DNA of 61,449 nt, filler included, from Hausera hauseri (taxonomy: Eukaryota): NCBI GenBank assembly GCA_046269625.1. It is 11 parts of 11 records of this genome, joined end to end, with 100 filler letters (N's around TTAATTAATTAA, not from the genome) between each part and the next. Parts side by side here need not be neighbours in the genome. Positions count along the whole stretch, not along the records: positions 1 to 7,197 come from JBJURY010031558.1; 10 more parts are not named here. One strand, 5' to 3'. Below are positions 1-37,253 of the stretch, piece by piece. The notes beneath the pieces were generated by a model. That model was not told where the DNA came from. It saw only the letters and a list, made by a program, of their open reading frames with translations, and made no database searches. The first letter of the stretch is position 1. Every line of letters begins with the position of its first letter. The position numbers and the translations under genes are program-made.

Positions 1-35
1 ACAATCAACAATTTGTGACACTACCCATTCTTTCC
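1..35 (-). promoter_or_regulatory. Polypurine tract (21-35) and first 20 nt of the 3' LTR (TGTCACA...)
   Basis: Minus strand reads gtcgtGGAAAGAATGGGTAG|TGTCACAAATTG, about 60 nt after the last ORF stop. Confidence 0.7.
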
Positions 36-92
36 ACGACTTTATATAGTAATTTGCCAGTTTATTTACACTTCATTTCTTCGGACTAATTA

Positions 93-650
93 TCAATTAT
101 TAATCAATTTACGACCTTTTTTATTTACGACACTCTCGGATGTGCCCATTGCGTCAATAGGGGTGCCGCGTAATCTGTCCATTCGTCCGCGTAAGTCCGC
201 TTCCGAATCTGTTTCGTTAGATGGTGACTGCGAGTCATTAAGGTAGGATGTAGTGGCCTGTTCGGGCAATATCTCCACTATTTTCTTATTCTCTCCATTC
301 GAGTAGTGTTTTAGCCTTGTAGCTTCAGCTCTGCATACTGGGCAGGTCGTTTTACCATTTTTCAGGGTCCACGTTTCTAAGCAGTATCTGCAGTATTTAT
401 TACTGCAGTCCTTGTTATCTAGGACCACGAAACCTTGATAGAGATCAGCATTACAAACGGGGCATTCTTCTTTTTTAGCTGCGTCGATGTCCTCAAGGTT
501 TTCATCCACTTTTATTATTTCAAATACCAGTCCTTTCTTATCTTGATATAAGTATCCGTACAATCTCTTTTGATTTGGGTCTATTGAGCTTTTCTTTGGG
601 TCATCGGATACTGCGACTAAGGTCCATTCGACGATTTCTTTTTTGTCCAA
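93..650 (-). CDS. RING-finger (C3HC4-like) domain, probable C-terminus of the retroelement accessory protein
   Basis: CPVC...CSNKYCRYC...W...CPVCR at about 333-464. The His ligand position is Asn (AAT, one base from CAT). Confidence 0.75.
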   Translation of the reverse strand: MDKKEIVEWTLVAVSDDPKKSSIDPNQKRLYGYLYQDKKGLVFEIIKVDENLEDIDAAKKEECPVCNADLYQGFVVLDNKDCSNKYCRYCLETWTLKNGKTTCPVCRAEATRLKHYSNGENKKIVEILPEQATTSYLNDSQSPSNETDSEADLRGRMDRLRGTPIDAMGTSESVVNKKGRKLINN

Positions 651-1098
651 ATTGGGTACTCCAGTCTTCTTGTACTGTCCTTTAGTTGAATCCTAACTTG
701 GGTATCCACGGGAATTGTTAATCTGTTAGTTCCACTCTTTCATTGAAATACTGGGCTAGGTATCTGCCGATAGTGTGGTCTTCTCTGGCATATCCGTTTC
801 CACTCACTGTCCGCCTTGGAACGGTAGATGCGTAAAATATAGCCTCTTTGATCTTTCCTTTGCTATAGTATTCGGCCATGACGAGGATTTGTTTATATTC
901 TTTAACTTGGCCAAATTCTGTGACAATAATTGGGGTATGTTTTTCCCAGTTCTTCCGAAGAACGTTAACTTCCGTTTTAAAAGGTTTCGGCTTAGTAATT
1001 TCTAGTTGGGTTTCTCTATCTTCTTTCCATTTTTCCTGATTTGCTACTCCCTTCTGATCTTTTATGGACTTCTCCGGGATTAAGTTATCTGTCGTTAG
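651..1098 (-). pseudogene. Frameshifted middle part of the accessory gene, linking the 487-aa ORF to the RING ORF
   Basis: Manual translation gives ...KQILVMAEYYSKGKIKEAIFY... and LTIPVDTQVRI..., matching MLVSTEYYSKKIIKEAMFF and IVVPVDKQIRV of 19082..19429. Confidence 0.7.
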
Positions 1099-2519
1099 GC
1101 CCTTGCTGGTCTTGCTTCTTTTTTGTTGATATAGTCCAGAAAAGAGGTCTTTGTTTTTTGCCTCTTTGGTTTCTCAAAATTATCAGCTCTTTTTGTTACT
1201 TCTCCTTGAGCTTTACTGGTTGATGGTTTCTGTGGATTGGTTGGGACTTCCGTTGGGTTGTTATAGACTGTTATTCCGAATTTGTTATGTTCATGGGTTT
1301 CGATTTGTCGGTAGCTAGGGTATTCACTAAACCCTTTTCGGAATTTTTGTATCAGTGCCTTGGGGTTATTGTCAGACATCGTATTCTGTATGGGACTTCT
1401 GGGTTTCCATTCGTAATCCAATCGTAATGAGTTATAGATATCGTTTATAAATTTGGTCCTTTGGCTGGCTGTCATTAGCTTAGGGAATTTGAATCGATCG
1501 CCATTCATGGCTTCTAGCATCATCTTAAATTGCGATTCGCGGGATGCTGACGGAAGCAGACAGCCTCTTTTTCGCATCAATGTACTTTCCACTTGGCTTA
1601 CTACTGCTGGGTTTTGACTCAATTCGCGAATTCCGGCTATGTATTCTTGTCTGATTCCTAGTCGCTCCAATGCTTCGTGCACTCGGAATTCGGTAATGAC
1701 GTATCCATATGAGCAATGGCTTATATCTTCTTGGATCTCCAAAAAATCTTTTCCTTTTTTGAGCTGGGGCTTCATGATTCCAGTAACGTCGGGAAAAGTA
1801 TCCTTTATCCTAGCACGAGGTGCGATTATTTTGTTTATGATTTCCTCTCCATTAGTATTTCTGATGGATACTTCGATCAGAAAGTACCATCCGTCATCCT
1901 TTTCTCCATAGTTTACGGCCAATATCCGAGTGTTTCGGCCATCTGGGACTAATCTGTAAGATTCCCCATTTTGCTCTATTTCGTCTTCAGATGGTTTCTG
2001 TACATATAATAACGGTGGTAGCGGCTTCATTACCTCGGTTCGCCACGTCATCTCTATCATAATCTTGGTCGGAAGGTCTGCGATCCTAAATTCCAGGGCA
2101 TAATTTATGAGGCTATAGCAACATAGCTCATAAGTACTAAACTTCCATTGCTGCCCTTTTTGCGTACTCCAGAATTGTCCTACGATCTTGTACTGAATTT
2201 TTTCATCAGCGACATGTATGTACAATTGCTGATGTGTCGGCTCGTATGGAATCAGATCCCTCAAGAGGTATGCTCGTGAATCCTTGGGATTTCTCATGGA
2301 ATATAATCGGACCAGTCGATTCTCTTCTAAACCCCATTTTAGTCCGTTCGGTATTTTACTCTCTTGTTTCAATTCTACATAATTCTGGCTTTTCAAATTT
2401 TCTTCAATTTGTCGGTATAGGTTTTTGGATAACGGCTTGAGGGCAGTGACGTGCTGCTGCAAGAATTTATCGATATCAAAATTGGAACTGACTGATGAAT
2501 TCTTCGCCTTCTCGGTCAT
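1095..2519 (-). CDS. Uncharacterised retroelement accessory protein, N-terminal ~475 aa
   Basis: Long open ORF, alignable along its length with 17490..19118 (INYALEFRIADLP/INYELEFRVAALP; SYRLVPDGRN/SYRLVQDGQN; LMTASQRTK/LLMASQRSK). Confidence 0.75.
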   Translation of the reverse strand: MTEKAKNSSVSSNFDIDKFLQQHVTALKPLSKNLYRQIEENLKSQNYVELKQESKIPNGLKWGLEENRLVRLYSMRNPKDSRAYLLRDLIPYEPTHQQLYIHVADEKIQYKIVGQFWSTQKGQQWKFSTYELCCYSLINYALEFRIADLPTKIMIEMTWRTEVMKPLPPLLYVQKPSEDEIEQNGESYRLVPDGRNTRILAVNYGEKDDGWYFLIEVSIRNTNGEEIINKIIAPRARIKDTFPDVTGIMKPQLKKGKDFLEIQEDISHCSYGYVITEFRVHEALERLGIRQEYIAGIRELSQNPAVVSQVESTLMRKRGCLLPSASRESQFKMMLEAMNGDRFKFPKLMTASQRTKFINDIYNSLRLDYEWKPRSPIQNTMSDNNPKALIQKFRKGFSEYPSYRQIETHEHNKFGITVYNNPTEVPTNPQKPSTSKAQGEVTKRADNFEKPKRQKTKTSFLDYINKKEARPARA

Positions 2520-2602
2520 ACTTACTCGACTGAAATAAAAATAAAGAAAATGAAACAAAACATTTTCTCTGTCTGATGATAGGATAACCCAATCTGTAGT
2601 TG

Positions 2603-4117
2603 TCAGGTTATGCTATCATAAGGTCCGTCTCGGTGCCCTATTACCCGTTTATCTCCCTCTCGATTTTTACAGTGTTTATTACAATTTTTGGAAACTAGAA
2701 AAATCATCGCTGTTGTTATGACAAGAACGAAAATTGACAAACTAAGTATAGCTATTATCGGTAAATTACTTGGCTCAGTAGAACTTTCCGTGGTAAATAC
2801 ATTTTGAGTGCTGATATCTTTATACGGCATTACTTCAAATTTATTGCCAAGCGTTCGTACTGTAAAAGTTTTGGGGTTCTTACCTTTCGCGGTAATTCTG
2901 ACTATATACTCATGTTGTGGCCGTAATGACCTGCATACGGCCCCCAGACTATTCTTTTTCAGGATCACAACTTGGTTGGTGTGCACGGTGCGACACTCAA
3001 TTTTGACGTCTCGATTTAACGTTTATGCAGCGTAAAATAAAATTCTATCACTTTTTGCTAAAATCTTAACCGGTATGTTTTTCGGCATTTCGCTCGAAGT
3101 TACAATCGTAGTAGTTCGAGTTGTACTCGGAGTCGTGGACGGTTTTCCTATAGTGGTTGGGAGCGGAAGCTTCCATATTCCATCCTTTGGACGATATCCT
3201 CTTAAATAGATACTTGGTTCTCCGGGATATATATCGTACAGATCGAGTTGCAACCAATAGTCTTTTCCTAATAGCAGTACAAAACACACAATAGGACGTC
3301 GTTTGGCCAAAGAATAGTATCCTGGTTTAGGAATTGAAGTGTTCAGTGGCGTAAATTGGACAGAGATTTCCTTGTCTTCTGGTAGTCCGCTTTTGGTCTC
3401 AATTCGAATGCACTGGTTCTTTACGTCCTTACGAATTCCAATAATGTTGTAGTCTAAGAGCCTTTTAACCGGATCGATGCTTCGAATTATTTCGTCCGTC
3501 TTAGCTTGATTTACGTCTTTCTGTTGGAGCATCCTTATTGAGAGTTCCATAGTTATGTAGGCCTGAGCCCCGAATTTATAAGAATAAAACATTTGAAAAC
3601 TGTATCCGTAAGTTTGTCCAAAATCCAAACTACAATATATATGAACTCCGTACGAAAAATCACACATTCTCATCGTGTCCTTGGTCTCAAATATTATTTG
3701 AAATTTTACGTAGCTCCGAATAGGTTCGCTTGATTCAAACCATGCACATGGCTTTCTCCAATCCATATCGCGTACTCTAAGTGACTGTAAGTTTTGGATA
3801 TCCTTTCGCTTTTCGCTTTGAGCAATCGATTTCGCAGTTGGTATATACGAAGCGATTAATGATAAGGCCAGGAATATTTTCACATAAGATATTGGTCTGG
3901 TCACTATCGACGATGTTTTCTTTTCTTTATTGACTTTATTTGATCGCAAATTATAGCGTTTATCCGGTCTTATTTCCGTTTTCACTACTCTCTGAATCGA
4001 TAAAATCTCTTCCTTGCCGTTTTTATTTATATAGACTGTGGTCGGCGTAACCTTAGTGACTTCATAAGGTTTTCTACCGGTTCTAGTAAGTTTAAGAGAT
4101 GTGCTCTTTTTCGTCAC
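2603..4117 (-). CDS. Integrase C-terminal tail fused to an env-position type-I membrane protein (signal-like segment, three FN3-like repeats, Thr-rich linker, TM), with one in-frame stop at 3023-3025
   Basis: ORFs 3023..4117 and 2603..2986 share a frame. Hydrophobic IFLALSLIASYIPTAKS; repeats CSLDFGQTY, CFVLLLGKDY, CRSLRPQHEY; TM IIAILSLSIFVLVITTAMIFLV. Confidence 0.65.
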
Positions 4118-4965
4118 TGGGAAGTGTACGTAAACTCAGTTTCCGGGTTCTAGGTCATGTGGTTTAGCCTTCTTATCATACTGTTTCTTAAATTGTTCCT
4201 GGTATTCTTTAGATAACTCTTTGGCTATTTCCTAACACCTGTGCAATCTTGATTGTACTACTTCGACAAAATTCTGATCTAAATCTTCCGTTCTAGTTGT
4301 ATATGGAATCAATCCCAAATCAGTAGGCAGTACAGCTTCTCTACCGTACATCATAAAAATGGACTGAATCTTGTCGCAGGATGTGGAGTAGTATTAATGG
4401 CAAATTGTGTGCCTTCTAAGAACTCGTCCCAATATTTCTGATCCTTCGCGACTACTGTCGATAGAATCCGTATAACGGTCGCGTTCATTCTCTCGACCAT
4501 TTCATTACATTGGGGGTGGTAAGCTGTAGTAGTTAATCTTTCGATCTCAAAAATCTTGGTAATTTTCTCGAACAGTTCACTCGTGAAGTTTCTTCCTCGG
4601 TCCGTCAGTATTTGTTCGGGTGGCCCGTATCTGCAGATGATCTTCCGGACTACGGCTTCTGTTATGGTCTCGGCCTTTTGGTCTAATAATGCTATAAGTT
4701 CGACGAAATGGGTCAATCGATCTACACACATCAGAATGTATTTGTTATTTTTGTGCGTTGTAGGCAAGGGTTCTACAATATCCATAGACATTGCTTGCAT
4801 TGGTCTATCGGGCACATCGATAGGCTTGAGCTCGGCGACGTAATTCTTTACTTTTCTTTGCTTGGTGGCACATACTTCGTACGCATTTACCCAATTTTTC
4901 ACGTCGATATAGATACTTGGCCAATAGCATTTTTTTAAATCCTTTTTAATATCTTTTTCCACCAC
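4118..4965 (-). pseudogene. Gypsy integrase (zinc-binding remnant and DDE core)
   Basis: YWPSIYIDV; MDIVEPLP; ILTDRGRNFTS; TTAYHPQCNEMVERMN. Confidence 0.93.
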
Positions 4966-6047
4966 AAATGTCCAGCCAAATAAGAATCATGTTCGGCCAT
5001 GAGTACTTCCGTTCGTAATCCTTTCGGTATGACAACTAGTTTCTGTCCCTTTCGTTCGTAATATAACACATTCTCGCGGTTCAAATCTCCAGCGACGCAG
5101 TATTTGTGACCATATCGTCGTAAGTGTTTCCGTAACTGATGACCTTTTGGTGTTACGTTGGTCTCTATGAACTCGATAATTTGTTGTAAAACCCGATATT
5201 TTCTTTGCTCAACAGCAATTTTTAATGCCTTATCTAGTGTGAGAATCTGTTGTTTCTCTACTAAGTCTGCAAGGTGAGCTTTTCTCATTACTGTAACTGC
5301 GCTTGTTTTCGTTTTAAGTCTCGATAATGCATCAACGTCAACATGTTTGCTTCTGGGCTTGTATTGGAACTCGATATTATATAGCGATATTTCCTCAATC
5401 CATCTGTTGAGCCTACAAGTTGGGTTATTCGCTTTACCTTTCAAAGTCGTAACTGCTTTATGATCCGTAACGATTATCATCTTTTGTCCATAGACATATA
5501 CATTGAAATTCCGCAGTGCTTCTTTTACCGCTAATGTTTCTAGTTCCGTAACAGAATAGTTCTTTTCTGCTTTCTTCAAAGAACGTCCCCCGTATGCAGT
5601 CGGGTGTTCCAACTCTTCGTCTTCTCGTTTTTTGGCCAGTTCATATCCTATACCTTCCTTACTGGCGTCTGTTTTGATTATGAACGGCAGGTTGAAATCG
5701 GGATATCTTAAAACAGGTTCGCTAGTTAGAATTTTCTTCATTTCATCAAAGGCCATTAGTTCAACATCGGTCCATTTCCATTTAATCCCTTTCTTTAATA
5801 AACGATACAAGGGTGCATTTATCTTTGCGTTTTCTGGCACGTAGGTGGCGTAATATCCACATAATTCTAGCCAATGCCTCAATTCTTTTTGGTTTTTGGG
5901 CTCCATGCAATCCGATATTTTACTTAACAGTGATTTATCCGGTTTTGATCCTCCTTCCCCAACTATATGTCCGAGGTACGACACAGCATTTTGAGCCCAT
6001 TTACACTTTTTGGGATTCAGCTTTAATCCAGCTTGCTCTAATCTCAT
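4935..6047 (-). pseudogene. Gypsy RT thumb/connection and RNase H
   Basis: LKLNPKKC...YLGHIV; FIIKTDASKEGIG; NYSVTELETLAV; VTDHKAV; DALSR. Confidence 0.93.
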
Positions 6048-6089
6048 GAGCGTACCTTCAATATCATTTATGTGGTCCTCTTTCGTTTT

Positions 6090-7197
6090 TCATGCAATCA
6101 TGACGTCGTCCAAATAGGCGAACGCGTGCTCTAGTCCCATTTGCATTTTGTTCATAATCCGGGTGAAAATGGCTGGCCCGGTAGTTATCCCAAATGGCAT
6201 AACATTAAATTCGTATATACCGTCGTGTGTTTTAAAGGCTGTCTTATAGCGATCTTCCTCTTCTATCTCTACTTGCCAATATCCAGATTGCAAATCGAGC
6301 GTGGTAAACCATTTAGCTCCCGAAAGTCTGTCTAAGGCTTCCTTTACTGATGGTAACGGAAAAGAGTCCTTCATCATAAGTGTATTTAATGCTCTATAGT
6401 CGATGCAAAATCGGTGTTTACTGGTACCTTTCTTCTTAACCATAAGTATAGGCGAGTACCAAGATTGGTAACTTGGTCTAATTATGTCGGCCCTTAACAT
6501 TCGTTCAACTTCCCTAGTTATTTCTGGCCTTAGCGAGTGTGGAGGAGGATACCATTTCGGCATCTTTTGATCCTCTAAGTCTATTTCATCATTAGATCCT
6601 GGCTTTTTCTTAACCTGAATCGTGAGCCTTAAAGTTTTGGCTCGGCCAATATCCTCTTCATCTCTCGCGATAATTGAGCTATAAAGACAAAGTAGTTCGT
6701 AGAATCGGCAATATGACTCTGGTGAAAATTTGGTCTCAACGTGGGGTGGAAATTCGGCACACTTGTATAGTTTCTCTTCGATGGTAATCGATGACACTCT
6801 ATACGTGTGTCCTAGAGTAGTATTGGCGTACAGTTTAATCGGAGTTGGTGCGTTATTGGCTATTCTGATTGGCACACGGCCCGTTGATACTCTTGTTAAA
6901 ACATTGCTGATCACTAGGTTTGGATCGAGCGATTCCTTTGGCTCAAAATATATTGGCTGATCGTCAACCTGACGTATCTGAGCATATATTAGGATTTCTG
7001 TTCTAAGTGGTATGGTTTCATCCACTGGAATCCATAATTCTCCAAATTTTTTGTCTTTAGTGGTTTTAACTCCTTTTATTGGGCCAAGTTCTATAAATTT
7101 GCCTGCATTGAAATCGATTGCTATATTAGGTAGTTGCCTCAATAGATCACACCCTAACACTACGTCATCCGTTAGTTGCTCCATTACTGAGAATTCG
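6090..7197 (-). pseudogene. Gypsy protease C-terminus, spacer and reverse transcriptase
   Basis: VVLGCDLL; RFCIDYRALN; LDLQSGYWQV; MPFGITTGPA; YLDD. Confidence 0.95.
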
Positions 7198-7297: not shown

Positions 7298-8130
7298 ATC
7301 AATTTTTAAACATGTGCCAGTCGATAGTGCACATGGAGCACTATCGATCGGTAATGTGCTAGGTAACGGTGCCGGTACGTACCGTTGCTAAGCACATTTT
7401 TGCACTTTTAACAAATCGATATCTGCACATGGCACAATTGATCGAATCAATCGGTACAAAGTGCTAATCGGTAGTACACATTAGTGCACACAGACTGGTG
7501 CTCAGTGCAGGTGCATTTCACATGTGCAAGTGTGCAAAAATCAATAATATCGGTTTACCGATATTTCGAATATCGATGATTATCACATGGCACCGGTTGC
7601 AATCGAATGAATTTACAATTAGAATTTAAATGGATCAAATGGTTTTCGAATAAATGCCAAGTGGGACAGACTTCCCATTGGCCTTTCCGGTGTAAAATGA
7701 AAAATAGATAAAATCGTAATGTCACATGTACTGGTCGGTAGTGAATGCCGTGCACTACCAATCGGAAAATTCTCAAGGCGGAGGTACCCTTGGGCACCGT
7801 TGCCATGACTCTTTTACACTTTTCACATTTTTGTAGCTGTACAGCCTAGGATTGATGGAATCGATTGGGGCCAAGTGCTAGGGAATACAGCATGTCGAGG
7901 TGCATCTTGTTGTTCACTGTGCAGGTACGCAGCACATATGCAAGTATGCAAAAATCAATAATATCGGTTTTCCGATATTTCCAATATTGATGATTAGCAC
8001 ATTTGACTAGGTGCAACCGATTGGAAATACGGTGTACTATGTGAATGTGCTATTCGAATTTTAATAGATCGAGTGGATTTGGAATAATATCGACTTGAAG
8101 ATGAGGCGGGGCAGACTTCCTATACGTTTT
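7298..8130. repeat. Hairpin-rich non-coding repeat with an internal ~415-bp-spaced duplication
   Basis: Stems at 7321-7347 and 7353-7398. Block GTGCAAAAATCAATAATATCGGTTTACCGATATT occurs near 7533 and again near 7946. Homologous to 47013-47150 in reverse orientation. Confidence 0.75.
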
Positions 8131-8758
8131 ATTTGTCCTAAGTACTTAAAATTCGATACAACAATTAGCGAGGACAGATAGGATGTCGAGTATGGAGATC
8201 TCGAATATCCAGTCGAATATTCGAAATTCGAAAACTTCCCCATTCGAATATCGAAAATCGAACTTTTCGAAAAATCAAACAACTGCATTTGATTCCCCAT
8301 GTCCGAAAATCTCTTTATGCATTAAAGTTATTCCATGAAAATGTGCTTTATATATACAGAATCAATATTTCCAATTGAGCAAAATGTGCATTTTAAAGGC
8401 CCATAAAGCATAAAAATTGATAAATCTAATAGTGGGACTGGGTAGGAACCAATATGAAGTGAATAGAAATATTTAGCTATTCGAACTCGAAAACTCGGTC
8501 AAGCATGCATTATTCGAAGAATCTAATGATATCACCCAATTCCCAATGTATGAACACCTCTTAAATTTGGCGCATAAGTGCATTTAATTTATTTAATGCA
8601 TTAAAACAAAGTGTTCTAGAATATTCGAAAATTCAAAAGTTACAAAATAAATAAATGAGGCAGTGTATTTTGAAATGGCTATACGTTTCATTATTTCCAA
8701 AATCATTTCCACGAATGGTGAGATTTTTATTTGTACTCTTCAAATATTTGACTTTTAG

Positions 8759-11700
8759 ATGTTGAATCTATACAAAGAATGCTTGACTCAAATCCACGAG
8801 TCTGAAAATTGCCACAACATTATGCAGAAATACTTCAGCCATCTATGCAACAGAGCTGAGTATTATATATGCCCTACATGTGAGGTAGTGTGCCCAACCA
8901 ATTATGAAGACTTTTACGATGTCCATAAACAACACCTGATTTCCTTCACCAAGTCGGAAAAACAATTATTTAATATCACTAAGCCAATAATGACTTCCAT
9001 ACCTAAGCAAAATCAAAGATGCAGTTGATACGTGTATTGCACATTGCCCTCAGAACTGACATAATACCATTAGAAGCTATTATGAATACAAATCCAATAG
9101 TATCCTCTATTATATTTGTCCAGGATGGAAGTCTATATGTGATGGAGAATTCATGCAGTTTTACGAAGATTATTTTGCCCATTTGACAGAATTTACGTCA
9201 AAATCAAAGAAGATCATCTTTAATGAGCAGCCTCATAATCATGCTTCGGTAGCACAGCCAGTTGTACAGCCTGCTTCAACAGCACAGCCAAGTGTTGAAG
9301 GTCCGATGCAGAACTAAAATGCATAGCAGCAGCAGATGCTCCATTAAAAAGCCAAAGACAGCTGCCATTTTATGCTACAGCATTAAAGAGAAAATTCCGC
9401 AGATATGTTATTGAGGCAACTGATCAAACAACCTTCGAACATTTCCTCTTATACACAAAGGAAGAGACAGAAGGAATTCTTCAGGATAACATAACTGAGC
9501 TCAAAACCTTTAAAGTGAATATGAAACTGGAGGCCAAATACATCAATGTTGATTGAAAAGAATCCAATAGGGCCTTCAAGTCTAAAAATATGCTCATATT
9601 GGAAAACACCAATATAGTGGAATGGCTGCAAGAGGCGCACGAGAAGCTCTTCCGTAAAACCGGGGAATACTTGGATAAGAAGAGCGGTTTGACTCTGTCA
9701 ACCATCAAGAGATTGCTTGTGTATGTGCACAAGTACTCCCCCATGCGGGACAGTTAATATATTCAGCTCCTTGAATGGATCATTAATAAAAAAGCATGCA
9801 TCAATGTCTATAATAGCAACAACATGTGTTTCATATATGCCATTCTATCAAAACTCGTAACAAATCAAAAGCATGCTTACCGTGTTTGGCTATATAAGGA
9901 TCTGCAGCACAACTATAACTTCGAATGTATTAAGTTCCCTCCATCCATAGATGAAGTCAAAAAATTTGGAAAAGTCAACAACATGTCTATTAATATCTTT
10001 GAATTGGTTGAACAGGACAAATTCTATACGCTGCAGATATCAAGAATTGGAAGATCATAGAGATCTGCTCCTACTAGACTTTGGAGAAAAGAAATATTAT
10101 GTTTGGATCAAAGACTTTGAGTGACTAATCAGATTCCAAATTAAGAAACATCATGGACAAATCGAAATATGCAAATGATGCTTGTCCCATTTCAGCGGCG
10201 ATGTAGTTGTATTGAAGCTTGCAGACCACAAGATGTTCTGCCGCAACAATTACTGTGTAAAGCACGAATTTCCCAAGGAGGACTACACGACTTTGAAGCT
10301 ATTCTCCAGCCATTTCACAGCTGCAATCCCAGTCCTCAACATAACAGCACAACGGCACACCAATACCATGAACTCTCATCATATTGTATGTATGCCAAAG
10401 GACTGGGCAGAGAATCATATATACTTAAGGGTCGAAGTGCAGCAGCTCATTTCATGAAGCGACTCGAAGACATGACTCATAGGCTTGAAGATATGTTGCA
10501 GTAGCATAAGGATAACGTGAGTATGTCGAATAATCAAGAAGAATAATGGCGTAAGACCACAGCATGTTACTTGTGCTCCAAATCATTTACTAAGGATAAT
10601 TATAAAGTCAGTGATCATTGCCATTTTACAGGCACATATCAAGGCGCCGCATGAATCAACTGAAATCTGTGTTGCAAAACATGTACATATGTGCCTGTAG
10701 TGTCTCCAGAATCTCAGTAGCTATGATTCCCATTTTATAGTCCGAGAATTAGGCAACATTGATGGTAATATAGATGTGATCCCCAACAATGAGGAAAAAT
10801 ATATCACTTTCACAAAGCATGTGGGCAAAATTCGACTTCTCTTCATAAACAGCTTTCCTTTCATGTGGTCTTCACTGGACAGTTTAGTGAAGAACCTCCC
10901 TGCAGAAGAACTCAAGTAGACGAAGTGGTTCTTCCCCACTGCATTTGACCTTGTCAAGAGGAAAGGCGTGTTTCTTAATTAATATAACTTCATGGGAAAC
11001 ACTGGATGATACCTCATTGCCGGACAAGAAAGACTTTTACAAAATCCTCTCTAATTGCGATATCAGTGATGCTGACTACCAGCATGCCCAGAACATGTGG
11101 TATGCATTCCAATGCCAAATATTAGAGGAATATAGTGATATATATCTCCAAACCGATGTGCTACTGCTGACGGATGTATTTGAGAGTTTCAGGTATGTTA
11201 CAATGAAGAGCTATGCACTGGATCTAGCTCATTTCTTTACGGCTCCAGGGATGAGTTGAACAGCTATGCTGAGATATACTGGCATTAGGCTGCAGATCAT
11301 AAAGGATTACCACATGATCCTCATGATTGAGAGAGGTATTAGAGGCGGAATATTCTACGTCATTCACCAGTATAACGAGGCCAACAACAGGTATATGGCC
11401 CAATATGATCCATCCCAGGAATACTCATATGTATCATACCTGGATGCCAACAACTTCTATGGATGGTCAATCAGCGCTCCATTGCCATATGATGACTTCA
11501 AGTGGGTCGAGCATCTTGGAAACATTCCTATACTGGACCTGGATCCCACTGAAGATACGGGATACATACTGGAGGTGGATATGGAATATCCGGCTTCTAT
11601 CCACACGAGGAATTAACTGCTGACTTTCCTCCCTCAGAGCCAGCCTCCGCCCCATAAATGCATAGAAAGGAGCTTTGCCATCTGTATAGTAGGGAGAGGT

Positions 11701-11952
11701 ATATAGTCCATTACATAAATCTCCAGCAAGCTGGCATAAATGGACTTCGCGTCACTACGATCCATAGAGCCCTGTAGTTCAGCCAGTCATATATAGATCT
11801 TAATACGAAGCTGTGGACCAATGCCAAGAAGGATGTTGAAAAGGACCAGTTCAAGCTTTACAATAACAGCGTTTTTGGCAAGACCATGGAGAATATCCGA
11901 AACAGGATCAACATCGAACTGGTTTCTGAGTTGAAGCGAGCAAAGAAGCTTA
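8759..11952 (+). pseudogene. Degraded protein-primed DNA polymerase B (Polinton/Adintovirus type) with N-terminal Cys/His repeats and an endonuclease VII-like insert
   Basis: CFIYAILS; CYLC...VSDHCHFTG; YLQTDVLLLTDVFESFR; IERGIRGG; YLDANNFYGW; GYILEVDMEYP; KLYNNSVFGKTMEN. Many stops and frameshifts. Confidence 0.9.
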
Positions 11953-12450
11953 NNNNNNNNNNNNNNNNNNNNNNNNNNNNNNNNNNNNNNNNNNNNTTAA
12001 TTAATTAANNNNNNNNNNNNNNNNNNNNNNNNNNNNNNNNNNNNNNNNNNNNTCACAGGCCCACTGTTTTGGGACCATCAACCGTTGGTCTATAACGTTT
12101 CCCACTTCCCCACAAACCATATGCGGGTTCTGGATCACTTTTTTGCCTGAACCCTTTCTTCCGCCAAGCATCCGATCGACTTCCTTCCTTCGGCATTCGA
12201 TGCGTCTTCCGTGCCCCATCATTTCTATGTGCCACACATGACCGTGCACCACTTCCTTCTAACATCCGCTTTTTTTCGTGCACTTCCCTTGCTTCCGGGG
12301 TGCACCGTGCACTGGTGCACGTGTTTTTTGGAATCTACGTCGCCGATTCTATCCGGCCATGCGGGTGTACGCATCAAGCACGCTTCGTATTGGCTGCAGG
12401 GGGGGGGCGGCGGGGGGTGATCCAGAACCCGCGTTTTTATACTACTGCCA

Positions 12451-12786
12451 TTGACACAAACGGTCAAAATCAAACCGGTGAAAAATGGTCTATTGGTGGA
12501 AAGGATCAGCGACGATAATTTGGATACAATGGAAGACACAATTTGTAAAGTTGACAGTGATTTGGTGTTGAGTAACGATATCCGAGACACATTGTCGACT
12601 TTTCTCAAAGGAAATATGGCGAAAATTGGCAGTTCACATGGAGGAGAAACAGCAACAGCAGCAGCAAAAGCAGTTTTGCCACCGAAAGGAGCTAAACGCC
12701 ATCTAACATTGAAGTTAGAAGGATACAAGGATCTTCACGGCGTTAAATCACCTATATGGAAGCTGGGAAAGTTTACTCTGATTTGA
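12451..12786 (+). CDS. Small ORF convergent with pPolB; probable gene of the Polinton-like element, function unknown
   Basis: 111-aa open frame followed by AATAAA in a short AT-rich spacer shared with the pPolB 3' end. Confidence 0.4.
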   Translation: MTQTVKIKPVKNGLLVERISDDNLDTMEDTICKVDSDLVLSNDIRDTLSTFLKGNMAKIGSSHGGETATAAAKAVLPPKGAKRHLTLKLEGYKDLHGVKSPIWKLGKFTLI

Positions 12787-13009
12787 CTTACTTTGTTTTT
12801 GATTTTAGCTTATGACGATTAATAAATTTGATTGATTTTGTTTGTTTTTCATATTGTTTCTCATCACATTAAATTAAATAGATAAATTAAGTGATAATGA
12901 AACAAAAGGCAAGAACAACGAATAATATACATTATTTATGCAAAACAAGCATCACAATGAATTGTCACAGTAATTTGATCTGTCTGCACCGAATATATGC
13001 ATGCGTGTT

Positions 13010-16000
13010 TTATTCCAAACGCCAATGTCCGTACGCCAAGCTCTTATTTCGCCCCACCCACTTACGCTTATCATCAATGCATGAAAAAGCGGCTTTTGTG
13101 TTGGTCACCGTATCTTGTGTTGAATCGACCGGATGATCGTTTGAGATAACAGCTCTTGATTGTCTTCCTTCATAGACACGGCGATAATCACCGTGATTTA
13201 TTTCCGTCTGGGCCAACTGAATTCCTTTGGCACGCATTTTAGGTCCATTGAGTTAAAAGACTAACATTTTGCCGTAGAAATACCCATTCCCGATACTGAA
13301 CCCGACCTTCTCTTTCATCCTTGAAGCAGCCGATTTTGTTTGTGATGACATTGCTATACAATGGATGATTCTGTGGGTAATTGGACGTGTCCAGTAATCC
13401 GTCTGCCTTCATTTGCTGCAGTAGTTGTTTGCGATTGACCTTTTCCAGTTTCAAGGAAAAACTATCTGTGTAACGGGCAATAATATTGATCCTGCTGTCG
13501 CCGTCGAACATTTGCCGGTAACGTGCCAAATCGCGATACTGCAGCTCATACATCCGCAACTTGCTCAGGTCCAATATCACTTGTCCGATGTAACTTCACT
13601 GTGTAAAAGCACGGCAACCATTCCATCGGCAATTTGCATTGACTGCCGAAACTGCGCCTTACTCGTGTACGTGACAAACTGCTTTTCGCTATTGTATAGG
13701 CGTATATTGAGCCGCTTTTTCATATTCTCCACTGCTTTTCCATACAGGGAATTGTTTTTCAGCTTGTAGTAGTCCTTTTCGAACTTTTCATCCAAGCTGC
13801 GGCTCGTTTCTCCGAATTTCCATCTATGTACGCCTTGAATATGGGAGCTTGAGCAAATCGGATTGCGCGATGTCGTGTGACGCGTACACCCTACTGCATG
13901 TAAAATTGCAACAGACGTCTATGAACTATGTAATTTTGCTTGGGTTCATGCGTCATAAGCAGCTTCTTCACCTTCGATCACGGTGGACATTGGCTAATTG
14001 GTGCGACCGGCAGTTCATCCAAAAAGTCATGCAGTTCACCTGGTACAACGTGTATGCTCTCGATACATTTTTCAGTATTGTGTCCAGGTCCCGTTTGTCG
14101 ACTACTCATTCGAATGAACCGAACGGCAAGGGTTGTGAAAGTGTCAAACCGTACAGGTTATCAATGTTGATATGCAACAGTGATGTGGTATCATCACTGG
14201 TTGCGTGATGGTTGTTGACAAATGTCATGCCGCCATGAATACCAATATCAAACATTCGGTGGATTTCCGAGTATTGCAACAGCTCGATATCCCGATTCAG
14301 TGACATCAGAGCTGATGCCCAAATCTTTCGCTCGAAACGCCTGAAGCACATCGGCTAACAGGAACACGTCCAGGTTAAGATAGTGGAGCATGTAATCCAA
14401 CATATTTCTACAGCCCAGTTCTGTCCAAGATTCTTGTGCTCTCCGATATTCATCTTCTGTGATGCCTGTCCATTGCAGCGGTAATTCTTCTGCTGTCCGG
14501 AGTCGCTCATATGATGTTGCAAAGTCATATGGAAATATGCCGTTGCTTTGTGCAATATGTGTGGGGAACTGCGTTGAGGTTATCGGTATATTCGGCAAGG
14601 CATTTACCAGATTCGCCAATGTTTCATTGAGAAATTTCAATGAATCAAGGAAGCATACCTGGAACCGGTTTATGCGTGTTGACAGGGACAGGTACTTATC
14701 CATTGTTGTTGGGATTATGGACAGTTCCCAGTGCTGAAATCCGTTGATGGCCCATTTCAGTATATGGTGACAATCATAACCTCGGAAATTATGAAAGATC
14801 ACCGTAGGAATGGCTGCACACGCATTGTTAAATAGCTTGCGTTGCATGCTGCCCCCAGGTATCGACCGTTGAAATGATCATTATCCGGTACGAGCCGTTC
14901 CTGTGCATCAAAAGGCAATATTTTGTGGCAGAGGTAACATTCATTGGTGACAGTGAAAAGCAGTGGTTTATATTCGTCTGTCCATATCAAGGGTTTAGTG
15001 CTATTGTTACTGTACCACGGCGCGATTTCCGTTTCCACAATTGTTTCAAACTGTTGCACGAAATCGCGTATACAGTTACAGCCATGAAAAACGTAATATT
15101 GCAGTTGTCCGGCGGCTTTGATTGGAATAACCAACATACCGACGGCGATTGGAATGTGCTTTTGGTCGTATACGTTGTGCCGCGGTAGGATTGCCTCCAT
15201 ATTGGCATATACCACACATACCGGAGTGTCTGTTTCCGACCAGTCACTGAATTTCAGCTCCTTTTTGACTGGCATGACGTACATTTTTGTCCCTAATGAA
15301 TTTTGTCTGCACACCGCCACATGTTTTTCCCATGTCGTTTTTGACCTGAAACCATACGCTTTTTGATTAATTGGTGGTGATCCATGTTCAGCAGTCTGTC
15401 CAAATTGGTTACTGCCACGTAGTGAAATTTATCTGCTTTTTCCAACAGCAACAAATTTACCTAGCGTCTATTCGGCTTTTTGTATCTCTTCGTATGCTGG
15501 TATTTCTACGATTGTGTTGTACCGGAACACGTTGATTGCCAGTGTCGGATTACGCCGTTCAAAAGCCGGAATGGTAGTCCAATTCTGAGAAATACTTACT
15601 GTACTGCTTTGGACAATTTGCATGATGTCTGGACACTTGTTCATATTTCAATATGGCCAGAATGCTGTAAATAAAGCAGTATTTGTCGTTAGTATTTTGT
15701 ACATTCTATACCGCCAGAGACTGCTTCAAGGATTCAGGTGTCGGTATGAGTGAACGTCCGGACAGGTAAATCATGTCACTCGTCTTGGTTAGAATAAAGC
15801 CGAGAGTGACAATCTTTACAATTCGCCAACCAGTGCCATTTTCGGTGTAGTTGGCGATTTATTCGTCAAGCTTCTCGCCTACATCGGCAATAAAATCCTC
15901 AAAGTATAGTACGACTCGATGTGACATGTACCATTGTTTCCTGTCACCTGCAGATTTTCAAATTCTGCAAGAGCATAATATTGCACTTTGCAGTGGTGTT

Positions 16001-17061: not shown

Positions 17062-17489
17062 TCACAAATATATTATTTTGCTACGTTTGTTTTCGTGAAT
17101 CAATATAATTTCTTTCACGTGTCTTTTTTGTTGTTACATTTCAGTATAAATACTTGCGTTTCCTTACGGTATGACATTACGGCATGTTCCATTTAACAGA
17201 ACTCATTCGTTTATATCACTCGTTCGACGGTCTCCGGAGTCACCTATGCAATCTTGATCGACCTTTACATGATTCACGATACCGTTCTCCCTATGAGATA
17301 CTCCGGCGTGCTGAGGAGAATTGGAGGGTACGAGAACCTTATNNNNNNNNNNNNNNNNNNNNNNNNNNNNNNNNNNNNNNNNNNNNTTAATTAATTAANN
17401 NNNNNNNNNNNNNNNNNNNNNNNNNNNNNNNNNNNNNNNNNNCAATACTTTGTTTTAGGATTGACCCTTATTTTGTATTTATTTTTAGA

Positions 17490-19400
17490 ATGGTAAGTAC
17501 GAACAGCCGACCTAGGATCGACACCTTTCTACAGGAATACGGAACCGTCCTCATTCCAAAATCCAAGGGAATTTATAGAAGAATCAACGACGCCCTGCAA
17601 ACAAAGGCATATCTGGAATATAAGAAAGTAACAGAAATACCCAACGACTTAAAGGGTACGACAGAGGATAATCGTATCGTCATGTTATATGCTATGAAAG
17701 ACAATCACCAAGCCGAATCTTACGATCTGAAGGAATTAATTCATAATCAAATAAACCGAGTGGAGAACCTATTTATACACCTCGCAGATGGAGAAATTTA
17801 TTACCGAATAAAAAACCAACAATGGAACGGAAACGAAGGGCGCCAATATAGATTCAGTACATTCAAAATAAATGAACAAGGTCTAGAAACCATCAATTAC
17901 GAACTAGAGTTTAGAGTAGCAGCGTTACCTGTCAAGTTGATGTTTGAAGTGACTTATAGAGAGAATTGCAACTTAGGTTTGCCAATTCTAGAATTTGAAC
18001 AGACCCCAACAGAGGAAGAGAAAGATGAACATAAACAATCGTACAGACTAGTTCAAGATGGACAAAATGTGAGAATAATAGCGATAAACTGCGGTAGAGG
18101 AGATGATGGATATGGAATACCCATCGAGATATCTGTCAGGGAGAGAAACGGAGTGGAGATATATTCGACGATAATAAACCCTCGAAAACTAGTACAGGAA
18201 TCATATGGAGAAGTAACAGGATTAAGAAAGGACCAGTTAATAAGTGGAACAGATATCTGTCAAGTCCGCTCAGAATTAGAACACTGTTTGTATGGTTGTA
18301 TGATAGCCGGTTATTATGCCCAACATGAGATGAAGCTATTAGGGATATCCGATGCAAATATTGCAGGACTTAGGGAAATAGCTTCTCATCCAATCGTCCA
18401 GGAACGGATGGAAAGAATTATACAAGGGAGAAACCGACCAACCGCGCCCGAAGCTTTCCTCAAGCTAACTATAGATGCTATGAGTGACCACCCGAGTAAA
18501 ATACCCAGACTTTTGATGGCCAGCCAACGGTCCAAATATTTGCAAGAAATATATGTTAAACTAAAATGGGAACATGAATGGACCCCAAGAAATCCCATAT
18601 ATAATTTACGCAACTCAATAGCCCCGGAACAACTAGACGGAAGATGTAGAAAGGGCATTAAGCCTTATTCCCCGATTCGAACTATCCAGATGATGGACGA
18701 ACACAATATCCAGATTACAGTACCAAAAAAGAAGATTGAGAACGAGAGGAGACTCCAAATGACTAAAGGAAAGGAGATAGTGCAAGAAACATCAAGGTGC
18801 CTACAAGAACAGAGAAAAGAAACAGGACCAGAAGTGATAAATAAAAAGATGAGATTAGAAAAGGAACTCCAACCAAGAAAAAAATTATCTATATACAATT
18901 ACCTATTTAAAAGACGGAAGACGGATGAAGAACAAGAACTAGACGATCAACCAAGCACTTCTCAAAGTACAGAACCGTCAAGGAAAGGAATTAGGAACCC
19001 CCTAATAACAGAAATCAGTGCCCTAATAAGCAAAAGAAGCAAAGACGATGTACATTTTAAAAAAACCAAGAATTTCCTAGAATGCTGGTGTCCACCGAAT
19101 ACTACAGCAAAAAGATAATAAAGGAAGCAATGTTTTTCGTAAAACTTGCCCCAGCCAGAGAAGTATTCGCAAATACATATGTGTGGGAAAACACTAAAAT
19201 CGGAACTTACCTTACATCGATCTTTCGTTCGAAAAGAACTGGAAAAATAGTAGTTCCTGTGGACAAACAGATACGAGTGCTGCTGAAAAAACAATATCAA
19301 AGGTATAAGATAGAAGGAACTATCCCTGACTTAGACAAGGATGTGATGACAGATTGGACTTTAATCCAAGTGGATTGCGACCCACGTAAAAGCTCCATTA
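17490..19400 (+). CDS. Diverged second copy of the Gypsy accessory gene (542-aa ORF plus frameshifted continuation from 19082), truncated before the RING
   Basis: Colinear similarity to 2519->~590. Ends LDKDVMTDWTLIQVDCDPRKSSIN versus LDKKEIVEWTLVAVSDDPKKSSID. Confidence 0.78.
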
Positions 19401-22400
19401 ACCTATGTATTAATGTAATTCCATTTTGATTCTTCACTTTTCTACTGAATGAACCATATTCTATTCGCAACAAACGGTTTGTAGTACTTTTAATATTGTT
19501 CAATCCAAAAGGGGACATTCTTGCTCTCACTCCAGTATGTTATTCTTATATTTGTTACATGCAGAATTTTCGCTACCTTCATGCACAGTTTCACTCCTAT
19601 GCACGCGGCCATTAACTCCAATCTAGGGATTCATATAGGTTTTATTGGGGCAACTTTTGATATTGTTGCGATTATATTCGTTCGTATTTTGTTCTTACTT
19701 ATACATATGAGATAAGCTACCGCCCCATATGCTATACTGGATGCATCACAGAATATGTGAATTTCCTTATCATCAGTCCCGTTCATTCCCATTCATCTTT
19801 CTATTTTTATTTCGTTTATTTCAGCTAATTGATCCAATCATGTCATCGTACGTTTTTCAACCCTTCGGGAATCTCATGATCCCAGCCAAATCCGTTTAAC
19901 CACATTTCTTGTAGCAGGCATTTGCCCACTATTGTGATAGTGCTCAATAGACCCAAGGGGCCGAATATTTTTGCTAAAGAACTTAAAATATTTCTTTTGG
20001 TTAATCTATTATCGTGGTCTCCCCCGCCGTCGAAGGTTAATCGATCTTCTTTTACATTTCATTTAAGTCCTAGAGTTTTTGAGACACAGCTGACTTCACT
20101 TTTGAAGGTGTATTCTCTTGTCTTCTCGCCTTCTGGGATTTTATAACATAACTGCTCTGAATTTGATAGCCATTTATGGGTCTTCATTTTTGATGTGCCC
20201 CAAACTTCTTTTAATTGGTGGTATAACTCAACGGTTTCACATTCTGTTTCAACGGAGTCTATACAATGGTGCATATACGTGGATTGTTTAATCGTTTCAA
20301 CCGCTCATGGATATGGGTTTTCAAATGTATCTGCGTTAACGTGGCTCACGAGCTGTGCCAGGAATGGTAAAGCATTCAATCCAAACATTACTCTTGTGAA
20401 TTGATATGCCTCGACATTACCATCCTTTCTCCATAGGAATGGTACGAATTTTCTGTCACCTGGAGAGATCCTAATCTGTAAGAACATTTTAACAATATCG
20501 CAGATCAATACAATTTTATATCTTCTCATACGTATTAAAATATCTACTAGATCTTGCTGTAGCTTCGGCCCTGGATATGATAAGTCATTTAAGCTTTTTC
20601 CTTTCACTTTTGCGGCTTCGTCGAAGTCTACTCTAACTTTAGTGGTAGATCTATCCGGTTTTAAAACAGGGATATGCGGCAGTATCCAATAATTCATCTC
20701 GATTTCCATCTTCTCTACTAATTCCACATATCCTTTTTTGATATGATCTTCGATGACTTGCTTTGGATATTGGTATCTCTTCCATTTCGTCTCTTCACGG
20801 CAGATAAACCTCATACCTTCCATCTTCAGTCTTCTTTATTTTATCTTTTGTAATCTGAAGAATTTCTTTATCCAATTTCGACCAAGTCTCTTTTACTTCA
20901 ACCGAATTTCATTTTCCCATAATCTTTTCATATTATCGTTCATTTCATCTACTCTGGTCCAATATGTTCGCACTAAGTTATTTCGCATTAAATTACCTTT
21001 CCGTTTATTCAAAGTTCCGACACGTCCAACCAAGGGGTGTCAATCTAGATAATAGTATTCCTGGCTTCCCGGAGACTTCTTTTGTGGATTTATGAAGGTG
21101 TATATAAATGGCACCTATAATTCCATCTGCATGCTCATCTTCTCCCGCTCCTACGAATTTAATATCTCGTAGGTGTGTCCATTGTCTCTTTTCTATCGTC
21201 CAACTGACGTAATTCATGTTCCCTGTTGGCTTTCTCATGGATAGTGCATTGAATCGTTCACAAATGCTATTATCCAAACCCTCCAAGATCTTGTGAACTC
21301 TGATCATATTTTGTTTTTGTTGCATACCTCCAACTACTGCCACTGTAACGTTTTCTTCTTCCCCACTAAGTTTTAATTGTCGTGCAATGTCTTCTTCAAG
21401 AAAACTATCAGTACTAGCGTCATACAACAGCATATTTACTTTAATTTTTTTGATTCCGTTAAGTAAGTATACCGATACGGTCGTCAAGGCTATTCCATCT
21501 AATACTTCAGATTTTTCTTCCTCCATCTTTCTCTTGTAAATTTGTCTTTCTGAATAATCACATTCATTTGTTTGGCAAGAAATGTCGTTCAATCGTGATT
21601 TTGTTCTGTCGGTATCTACGGAGGTTTTGGGGTTTTTGTCTTTATCTAAATTTCCATCAAGAATTTTTGAATAATTGACTTCTCGTTTTAAAGTTTTTGG
21701 AGAATCTCCATGCTTGAACCAACAATTCCCACCGTATCTGCAATTTCCTATTTGAAAGTATGGACAAGGTTTTTGATTTATATTTTTATAACTACTCTGA
21801 TCTCTCTTTTCATGTTGATACGTACATTAGTCTTTGAATTGGAATTTACCAGTTAGGAAATATATGCAAGGTCTCCGTTGGATCTCTTTATTTTTCCAAC
21901 AATTATTACTTCTTTCTATTCTTTTTCCTTTATTACGGAACCCAATTTTGTCTGTTGACTTATTCCTTTCCTTCTTTTTATCGGTATAAAAGGAATTTTT
22001 CACTAATCTTTCGGAATGTATATTTTTGTTTGGCATTAAAACATTTATTCCATGAACTCCTGCAGCAAGACGTTTTAACTCTGCTTCTTTTTCTACCCAC
22101 GCTTTCAAGTCTTGTACGTTTCGTTTTTATCCTTATCTTCGCGATATCGCTCCCATGTTAAGACCATAATTTCGGGTAACTTTTGGATTAGATTTTGTTA
22201 CAATAGACCGCCTTCCAACTCTATTTCAGGGTCTAAATGTTTCAATCTTACTATGGCTGAGTCCAATAACGTGGCGAAGGAGTCTAACTCTTTAATGTTA
22301 TGTACGCCTATTTTTTGGAACTCCATAATCTCTGACATGAGAGAGGCGTAATTTCTCTGGTTCCCTGCATAATATCTTTCCAATTTTTCAACAACTGCTT

Positions 22401-22470
22401 TGTAGGAATCTTCTGAGAGATTATAGTTTTGAACTAAGCGTTTTGCTTCTCCATACAAACAATTTTCTAG
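19400..22470 (-). mobile_element. Degraded BEL/Pao retrotransposon (Gag, protease, RT, RNase H)
   Basis: GEAKRLVQNYNLSEDSYKAVVEKLERYY (BEL Gag); STTKVRVDFD...SLND...GPKLQQDL; DIVKMFLQI; HIFCDASSIAYGAVAYL. Confidence 0.92.
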
Positions 22471-36400: not shown

Positions 36401-37253
36401 TACCATACAACAAGTTAGTCCTTGTAATAAAAAATTCATACACCTCTGAAATGTAGCAGGTCCTCCTGTCAAAGCAAAGAGCATAAGGTTAAATTCCCAT
36501 AGTCCAGTTCCAGTGGAAAAGCTGTTTTTTGTTTATCTTCTTCGGCGACTTCGACTTGCGAAAATCCACACTGTAAATCTAAAGTGGTAAATATCGCTGC
36601 ATTTCTAAGGGCTGTAAGCATTTGGTCTATTTTTGGTAATGGATAATTATCCTTCTTTGTAACATTATTTACCGCTCTAAAATCCACACAAAATCGTTGT
36701 CCTCCATCTTTCTTCTGCACTAATACTACTGGAGATGTCCATGGTAAGAAACTTAGTCTAATAATACCATGTGCCACCATGCTATTAGCCCTTCGCGTGG
36801 TCTATCAGGAACTGATTGTCCTAAGACTGCTCCTATTGCGTAACCACTGGCATCGGTCATTATTATATAGGGGTACTTTGGATCAGGAAATTGCAATATT
36901 AAAGGTGAAGTAAGTACTTGTTTTAAAATCTGGAACGCTCTCTGATGTGTTTCTTCCCAATTCCATGTTGTCCCTTTCTTAGTTAATTCTACTAGAGGTT
37001 TAACTATACTTGCAAAATTATATACAAACTTCCTATAGTAATTAGCCATTCCTAACAATCTTTGTAACTCCTTAAGACATTTTGGTGGTCTTAATTTCTT
37101 GAGCTTCTCTACATTTCTAGGATCAGGTTGAATCCCTTTATTTGACACTGTGTCCGAGAAAAGTAACAATGTTCTTAGCCAATTCACATTTTTCAACTTA
37201 AATTTTAAATGAGCTTGCTTTCGTCTATCAAATACTTGAGAAATATCTTTTAA
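33446..37253 (-). mobile_element. Rearranged, degraded Ty3/Gypsy pol: duplicated RT-RNH piece, RT, RNase H, integrase, then a protease fragment
   Basis: RFCVDFRAVN; MTDASGYAIGAVL twice; TIERECYAIV; FHPQANG; CIIGRD at 33482..33850. Confidence 0.92.

Follow-up and report, generated by a model that had tools for sequence, protein, structure and literature searches.

A decayed Gypsy element of Hausera hauseri with a predicted fibronectin III-like membrane module and a RING-ending accessory gene downstream of integrase

The window analysed here is a stretch of 61,449 nucleotides from the genome of Hausera hauseri (GenBank assembly GCA_046269625.1), made up of 11 short contigs with N spacers between them. 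The first of these contigs (1-7197; JBJURY010031558.1) holds, on its minus strand, the 3' half of one decayed member of a Ty3/gypsy retroelement family with many copies. Metaviridae are usually taught as carrying gag and pol, with or without env. Read along the coding strand, this copy instead gives pol, a signal-peptide-like stretch, a fibronectin type III (FN3)-like domain and a transmembrane helix, a splice-acceptor-like site, a long accessory gene, a purine tract and the dinucleotide TG. A preliminary description of the locus had proposed a Gypsy element in which integrase is followed, on the sense strand, by a membrane region and then by a long gene ending in a RING finger, and both Pfam and hydropathy agree with that arrangement. 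Along the contig the GC content is even (0.385-0.414), and the coding strand is A-rich over 1-7000.

The pol fragment (3941..7197, minus strand) was delimited by Pfam matches, reading frames, the match to the Ty3 reverse transcriptase (RT) and alignment to the pol of two distant relatives, L001 and L003, which are described below. The contig begins within a protease-like stretch, and gag, the env region and everything upstream fall outside it. The end of the protease-like stretch is followed by a spacer, RT, RNase H and an integrase that ends in RYNLRS. The order of Pfam matches is of the Ty3/gypsy type, with RVT_1 at an E value of 5e-25, RT_RNaseH at 7e-29 and rve at 6e-15, and the nearest solved RT is that of Ty3 (1e-32 to 2e-33), with orthoretroviral RTs at 1e-8 or weaker. 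Both the succession of protease, RT, RNase H and integrase and the Ty3-like RT are those of Metaviridae. The frame is interrupted by a stop at 6092-6090, by frame changes near 4985-4935 and near 4355, and by stops near 4234 and 4138. The accessory gene is broken as well, and the copy is therefore dead.

The integrase end motif RYNLRS lies at 3958-3941, and the same frame continues into the membrane module. The membrane-protein open reading frame (ORF) of the preliminary description is thus present as a region but not as a separate ORF, since it prolongs the integrase frame past RYNLRS, with one stop at 3025-3023. The module, all of it on the minus strand, opens with a signal-peptide-like hydrophobic stretch in the integrase-tail frame (3827..3892), with a hydropathy of about 1.5-1.6 against a stronger 2.6 at the matching place in L001. 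There follow a predicted beta-rich ectodomain with a Thr/Ser-rich stalk (3080..3826), a predicted FN3-like domain that contains the stop (2831..3079), and a segment (2603..2764) comprising a transmembrane helix (2764-2693; hydropathy 2.74, and a confident helix in the structural model) and a short tail to the stop at 2605-2603. In the sequencing run X1, which is possibly the source sample, nearly all of the depth at 3025-3023 reads differently, and for that reason this stop looks specific to the copy.

The membrane protein was modelled from its single sequence, with X at the broken position, and the mean predicted local distance difference test (pLDDT) score was 41. Residues 1-274 score below 50, and residues 275-358 form a beta-sandwich. 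The best match of this modelled domain in VIA-align is the integrin beta4 FN3 domain (Z 8.8, root mean square deviation (rmsd) 2.4, 81 residues), and FN3 domains are the majority of the 50 fold-match rows, a uniform list, though Z scores under 8-9 are only moderate. The assignment draws also on a weak profile match to the tails of L001 and L003. The post-integrase protein is accordingly predicted by the model to be a type I membrane protein with an FN3-like domain. No Pfam fusion-glycoprotein family was detected in the X-bridged protein, of which residues 1-274 are modelled unreliably, and the same library does detect the fusogens of L001 and L003. The module is not an env fusogen, neither of the F type nor of the gB type after pol. 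What had been called a surface protein is retained as a predicted type I membrane protein and given up as a fusogen, the gB-like region of the relatives lying before pol. The ectodomain had no sequence relatives in a word-index protein search and no usable Atlas match. A match of the membrane protein to complement receptor 1 (E 0.013) was dismissed as fortuitous, being made up of short stretches, and a Pfam Lig_chan match was rejected because it fell below the cut-off.

From the membrane stop (2603) to the CAG of a splice-acceptor-like site (2530) there are 73 bases, which leave no place for a long terminal repeat (LTR) between pol and the accessory gene. The site (2520..2554, minus strand) consists of a pyrimidine tract and the CAG, and it ranks first among 80 acceptor-like sites in the element. 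It stands 11 bases before the accessory ATG, and the only GTAAGT of the element lies 4 bases after it. Another contig carries a paralogue of the accessory gene (17488..19402, plus strand; 39% identity over 413 residues, E 2e-101), in which the same pair of acceptor and GTAAGT recurs, the acceptor ranked first of 22. The splice signals thus persist where the proteins have diverged to 39% identity. In L001 and L003, TAG stands directly before the accessory ATG and is not top-ranked as an acceptor. These signals suggest that the accessory gene is probably expressed by splicing, through a subgenomic message. The paralogue is cut before the RING by a reverse-oriented BEL/Pao-like insertion. This insertion is a decayed element that spans 19430-22470 on the minus strand, with gag-like, CCCH zinc finger and protease-like parts and a part that by eye resembles RT.

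The long accessory gene extends over 93..2519 on the minus strand in at least three frames (2519-1095, about 906-736 and 671-123), the breaks falling from about 1143 to 671. When 1.84 billion representative proteins were searched with a profile, 88 matched. P0003 is a natural and intact protein of 870 amino acids, encoded on a contig of 16,242 bases, and in a tblastn comparison it aligns to the window in collinear blocks at 2480-1143 (43% identity), 906-736 (42%) and 671-123 (50%). The 2.4 kb of accessory coding sequence aligns without introns, and because the match to an intact protein is collinear, the three frames are taken to be one gene. The long gene ending in a RING finger that had been reported for this locus is therefore a single gene with a RING but, in the window copy, not an unbroken ORF. 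The word-index search returned one homologue of the accessory protein and, at E 1e-60, no pol among longer proteins, which is a weak test with a poor threshold. Scans of viral_contigs with A1, A2, A4, the RNase H frame and P0003 found no relatives, and neither did a first metagenome scan with A1.

A model of the accessory protein built from 27 aligned sequences (mean pLDDT 76) shows two domains. The N-terminal domain (2037..2501, minus strand; pLDDT mostly 80-95) is a double-stranded beta-helix with a fold like that of AlkB and the 2-oxoglutarate (2OG)-Fe(II) dioxygenases. Over about model residues 4-162 it matches Ofd2 (Z 10.6, rmsd 3.7, 141 residues), ALKBH6 (Z 9.8), ALKBH5 (Z 9.2) and AlkB (Z 9-10). 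No HxD metal motif is conserved in the alignment of this domain (27 proteins, without residue-level superposition), and one histidine is kept in 23 of the 27. The second domain (1401..1934, minus strand) was recognised by fold comparison and by the family profile as an ISG20/ISG20L2-like DEDDh exonuclease fold. Model residues 196-373 superpose on human ISG20, a protein with an antiviral role, at Z 19.8 (rmsd 2.0, 159 residues) and on ISG20L2 at Z 18.9, and the family profile matches ISG20L2 at E 9e-26.

The second domain has the fold of a DEDDh exonuclease but lacks the D-E-D-D and H residues of an active one. The D-x-E of ExoI is changed to A-x-N in all four close homologues (the window copy, the paralogue, P0001 and P0003), and the H and D of ExoIII are replaced in all three of those that reach that region. 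Because the loss is common to all four, it is older than the decay of the window copy. Among the 27 aligned family proteins, 14 retain the ExoI D-x-E together with the ExoIII H and D. Both domains are covered by 32 of the 87 scored matches, although the profile was built from 27 proteins and 25 of the 32 were in it. A nuclease-domain tree, made by a quick method from 85 of 90 rows (five short rows were dropped), unites the window copy, the paralogue and P0003 in one clade (support 100). The clade has a long stem, with the two-domain family on one side of it and 43 single-domain proteins on the other (support 89-90). The tree neither shows nor excludes a single origin of the nuclease domain. 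In independent assemblies, the accessory proteins are often found on contigs of 14-17 kb (P0070, P0014, P0007, P0013 and P0017, for example), and in the P0070 cluster 11 of the 15 listed contigs measure 15.6-17.0 kb and a further one 15.6 kb. This recurrence is as expected for collapsed full-length elements.

The C-terminal part of the protein, again on the minus strand, consists of a conserved domain split by frame changes (468..906), which is 42-50% identical to P0003 and the paralogue and has no Pfam family, and of the RING finger (330..467). The RING matches Pfam zf-RING_2 at 3.7e-7, above the curated cut-off, and RING E3 ligases in the PDB; the C-terminal end of P0003 is a complete C3HC4 RING (Pfam zf-C3HC4, 2.6e-7). 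No RING was found in 14 further matches that were scanned, and the paralogue and P0001, the latter on a contig of 12,445 bases, end before that point. The ubiquitin ligase proposed in the preliminary description is kept in so far as the motif is present; the claim is carried by the motif, and the related accessory genes of L001 and L003 have no RING. Ubiquitin ligase (E3) activity of the RING is thus putative.

The 3' end of the element is marked by a polypurine tract (21..35, minus strand) with purines at 13 of its 15 positions. It abuts TG, as in Metaviridae: the last stretch of the contig (1..20, minus strand) begins TGTCACA (20-14) and is presumed to be the first 20 bases of the 3' LTR. 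The polypurine-TG junction expected near 35-1 is thereby found, the LTR itself being presumed. L001 has a like site at 13815-13836, with a purine tract and then TGTTACA at 13830. Among the 54 TGTnACA sites of the window, this site alone has such a purine tract, against 0.04 expected per shuffled element, under a criterion set post hoc. No second copy of the 20 presumed LTR bases occurs in the window.

Whether the membrane module and the long gene belong to the element can be judged from its other copies. In run X1, 17,692 contigs of at least 80% likeness cover all 30 bins of the element stretch; 906 of them are at least 99% alike, 7,626 are below 90% and most are below 95%. Only 1% of the contigs continue into unlike sequence. 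The summed depth, which on these short contigs is not a copy number, is 415-26,616 over the cargo bins and 5,533-62,342 over the pol bins, with the minima in two low-complexity linkers. The bin at 2401-2640 has high and divergent cover, and no loose end was seen at either junction among the 12 shown of 2,132. The X1 contigs and the paralogue together describe a dispersed multi-copy family. Run X2, with a share of only 0.07 and low depth, was not used as independent support. Of 1,824 variant sites in X1, 40 were listed, not as a random draw, and 38 were used, 37 of them in a frame. In the cargo frames, third codon positions account for 6 of 8 family-polymorphic sites and for 2 of 12 copy-private sites.

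Alternatively, a Gypsy might have inserted beside the long gene, which would then belong to the host or be mobile in its own right, or the contig might be a short-read chimera of collapsed repeats. The assembly is short and fragmented, no read set bridges all junctions, the LTR is presumed only, and a host exon could account for the acceptor and donor signals. This explanation is nevertheless very unlikely, given the 73 bases without an LTR between membrane stop and acceptor, the intron-free alignment of 2.4 kb to P0003, the divergent cover of 2401-2640 without loose ends, and the same order of parts in L001 and L003. Together with the multi-copy cover and the paralogue, these points uphold the earlier view of the accessory modules as element cargo and not flanking host genes, a view that can be held with considerable confidence.

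The relatives were found in a metagenome scan with a distant accessory subfamily, which gave three loci, one of them (L002) an uninformative fragment of 2.5 kb. L001 and L003 each have one open frame of more than 3,000 codons, in which a gB-like fusogen is followed by proteases, RT, RNase H, integrase, a hydrophobic stretch, an FN3-like domain and a transmembrane helix. Pfam Monjiviricetes_fusion matches before pol at 8.7e-84 in L001 and 5.4e-94 in L003. The integrase ends in the motif R/N-Y-x-L-R-P, after which about 440 residues lead to the transmembrane helix, and the post-integrase tails of the two loci match each other at E 5e-15. The two-domain accessory gene follows the polyprotein in both, without a RING and with the catalytic set kept. 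The layout is thus maintained at 34-40% identity in pol and about 19% in the accessory protein. No long direct repeats were found in the available sequence of L001 and L003, the 5' ends of which are missing. Because their pol is too distant, an env cannot be assumed for the window lineage.

Further features of these loci were observed. The polyproteins (L001:2-9040 and L003:1-9624, each more than 3,000 amino acids) have two aspartic-protease domains before RT in L001 and three in L003, and L003 has an extra signal/FN3-like/transmembrane cassette between proteases, at about residues 1363-1559. A helical, coiled-coil-looking ORF with no Pfam match lies beside the accessory gene (L001:9207-9875 and L003:11571-12008), before it in L001, with TAG directly preceding the ATG, and after it in L003. 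Another decayed Gypsy in the window (33446-37300, minus strand) has RT and RNase H that are 49-63% identical to those of L001 and L003, and after its integrase comes a protease-like stretch (33482-33950) in place of a membrane module.

The conservation of the layout at such identities bears on the idea that recombination brought in both the membrane module and the long gene as passive pieces of host sequence, carried without benefit. The folds of the two are usual in host proteins (FN3 receptors for the one, ISG20/REX4, AlkB and RING for the other), and the window copy is broken throughout. Passive carriage is nonetheless most improbable in view of that shared layout, of the intact 870-residue homologue P0003 and the conserved splice signals, and of the occurrence of both domains in 32 of 87 scored database matches, 25 of them profile members.

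On balance, the locus is best read as a Gypsy element that carries an in-frame FN3 membrane module and a likely spliced, RNA-binding ubiquitin-ligase adaptor against host defence, and we consider this reading as a whole to be somewhat better than an even bet. In short, signal peptidase or an element protease would release the FN3 protein from its precursor, the pol polyprotein. Displayed on the surface of particles or cells, this protein may serve in attachment or mimic a receptor, next to a gB-like fusogen if the lineage has one. The accessory protein would be made from a spliced subgenomic RNA, and its two dead enzyme folds would bind RNA or RNA-protein complexes. The RING could then recruit a ubiquitin-conjugating enzyme (E2) and ubiquitinate host silencing or antiviral factors gathered on the element RNA. 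Loss of catalysis with retained RNA binding has precedent in Maelstrom and EXD1, inactive DEDD derivatives according to the part of the rotifer study drawn on here (PMC5408684). As a proposal from sequence, the counter-defence E3 role of the accessory protein is possible, its chances falling somewhat short of even.

Several observations weigh against this reading. The FN3 call comes from one single-sequence model (mean pLDDT 41) with Z of 7-9, and the profile match of the domain to the L001 and L003 tails is weak (E 2e-4, probability 47%). The pol of the window element is only 38-40% identical to that of L001 and L003 in RNase H; the other Gypsy of the window is closer to them there (49%), yet no membrane tail was seen in it. 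Neither an LTR pair nor a target-site duplication was seen on the contig, which has 20 bases past the purine tract, and no single X1 contig spans pol to cargo. The excess of third-position sites is absent in pol (2 of 6 against 2 of 11), so that this evidence is weak. A RING is found in 1 of the 27 aligned proteins (P0003) and in the last frame of the window copy, where 7 of 8 zinc-ligand positions are present and the histidine ligand position is not His.

The main rival holds that the modules are indeed cargo but that the accessory protein serves the replication of the element itself, as an RNA chaperone, in packaging, or in trimming RNA or cDNA ends in the catalytically intact relatives, with a RING that would regulate particle budding or the protein's own turnover and would not attack host defence. 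The retention of the catalytic set in 14 of 27 family members and in L001 and L003, and the lack of a RING in most family members, are consistent with such a role, and 3'-end processing has been proposed for the rotifer DEDDy ORF3 in the part of the source available (PMC5408684). The window subfamily, on its long branch, instead combines lost catalysis with a RING and one more conserved domain, a pattern that fits a change to an adaptor role. Replication service is judged an unlikely explanation, with perhaps one chance in a few.

The adaptor reading can be extended to a broader and more tentative picture, which we regard as rather doubtful at present. These would be an undescribed lineage of complex infectious animal elements of about 16 kb, in which entry is split between a gB-like fusogen and an FN3 protein cut from pol. 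An antiviral nuclease like ISG20, captured and joined to an AlkB-like domain, would have become a dead RNA-binding adaptor with a RING, and counter-defence like that of Vif or ICP0 would have arisen independently in Metaviridae. Herpesvirus ICP0 and lentiviral Vif, Vpu and Vpr are RING or E3-adaptor accessory proteins that send restriction factors to ubiquitination. The likeness to these proteins is an analogy of working principle only, with no sequence or fold relationship shown.

Related elements have been described, and the comparisons that follow draw on parts of the source papers. Ty3/gypsy 'errantiviruses' with a GAG-ENV-POL order and a gB-type env were reported from nematodes, bryozoans and flatworms (Chary and Hayashi, PMC13524379). 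They have in common with the elements discussed here a Ty3/gypsy pol and, in the relatives L001 and L003, a gB-like fusogen of the Monjiviricetes type before pol. In the present element, by contrast, pol continues into a signal/FN3/transmembrane module and is followed by a separate accessory gene, gag and the env region lying outside the window copy. The words exonuclease, RING, fibronectin and accessory are absent from the main text of that paper, and some of the elements it describes may be members of the family that were not annotated as such (PMC13524379).

Burro/GYPSM1, a giant Gypsy of planarians, resembles L001 and L003 in its large polyprotein, where env is in frame and placed after gag and before pol. 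Its ubiquitination-linked accessory domains include MATH, BIR and an AIR1 motif, the last described as RING-type (PMC6431247). Its extra domains lie in or upstream of a polyprotein of 4,873 amino acids in an element of more than 30 kb, whereas the elements considered here measure about 13-17 kb and have theirs on the 3' side of integrase. In the part of the report available, neither an ISG20-like nor an AlkB-like domain is listed for Burro, nor an FN3 membrane tail. The bdelloid elements Vesta and Juno have, like the present one, a DEDD-superfamily exonuclease (ORF3) after pol, and some clades have small transmembrane ORF3s (PMC5408684). Their ORF3 is an RNase D-like DEDDy enzyme with intact residues, as opposed to a dead ISG20/ISG20L2-like DEDDh fold that is fused to an AlkB-like domain and has a RING. 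A Gypsy of the orchid Phalaenopsis likewise has an extra ORF with a 2OG-Fe(II) dioxygenase fold, but this AlkB is a recently captured and active N6-methyladenosine (m6A) demethylase found by standard profiles (PMC9289625). In the Hausera element the fold can be recognised by structure only; no metal motif is visible in it, and a nuclease fold is joined to it. Each ingredient therefore has a loose precedent in some Gypsy lineage, and the combination was not found described. An in-frame FN3 module with a spliced AlkB-like/ISG20-like RING gene in a Gypsy element did not appear in the full-text literature searched, a scope outside which most subscription papers, Repbase and GyDB fall.

A layout of four parts (fusogen, pol, predicted FN3 surface protein and probably spliced accessory gene), conserved at 34-40% pol identity, comes near to the organisation of complex retroviruses. 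An accessory family with both intact members and dead members with a RING would provide a natural series from a host RNA enzyme to a counter-defence factor, and P0003, as an intact natural protein, can be assayed directly. Elements of the gB type are not known to have the gH/gL of herpesviruses. A surface protein apart from the fusogen offers a testable answer to how such elements choose their target cells.

The remaining contigs of the window have the character of a fragmented, repeat-rich, animal-like genome. Two contigs at 7298-16000 hold a decayed DNA polymerase B of the protein-primed type (Pfam DNA_pol_B_2 at 14251-14877) that is Polinton/adintovirus-like. Short palindrome-rich repeats common to two contigs (7321-7351, 7735-7765, 47100-47130 and 7498-7616/7912-8030) are probably a small non-autonomous element. 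An apparently unbroken frame of 324 amino acids (26589-27560, plus strand) has three repeated helix-turn-helix units, of the Sleeping Beauty/centromere-binding type according to Pfam. A piggyBac-like transposase (DDE_Tnp_1_7; 37720-39138, plus strand), split by one stop, shares its contig with a Gypsy. Further LTR elements are present on the remaining contigs. A fragment of a ubiquitin C-terminal hydrolase (USP; 54021-54779, minus strand) lies upstream of a decayed Gypsy gag-pol-like region and on the same strand, and it may represent either a host pseudogene or further cargo related to ubiquitin.

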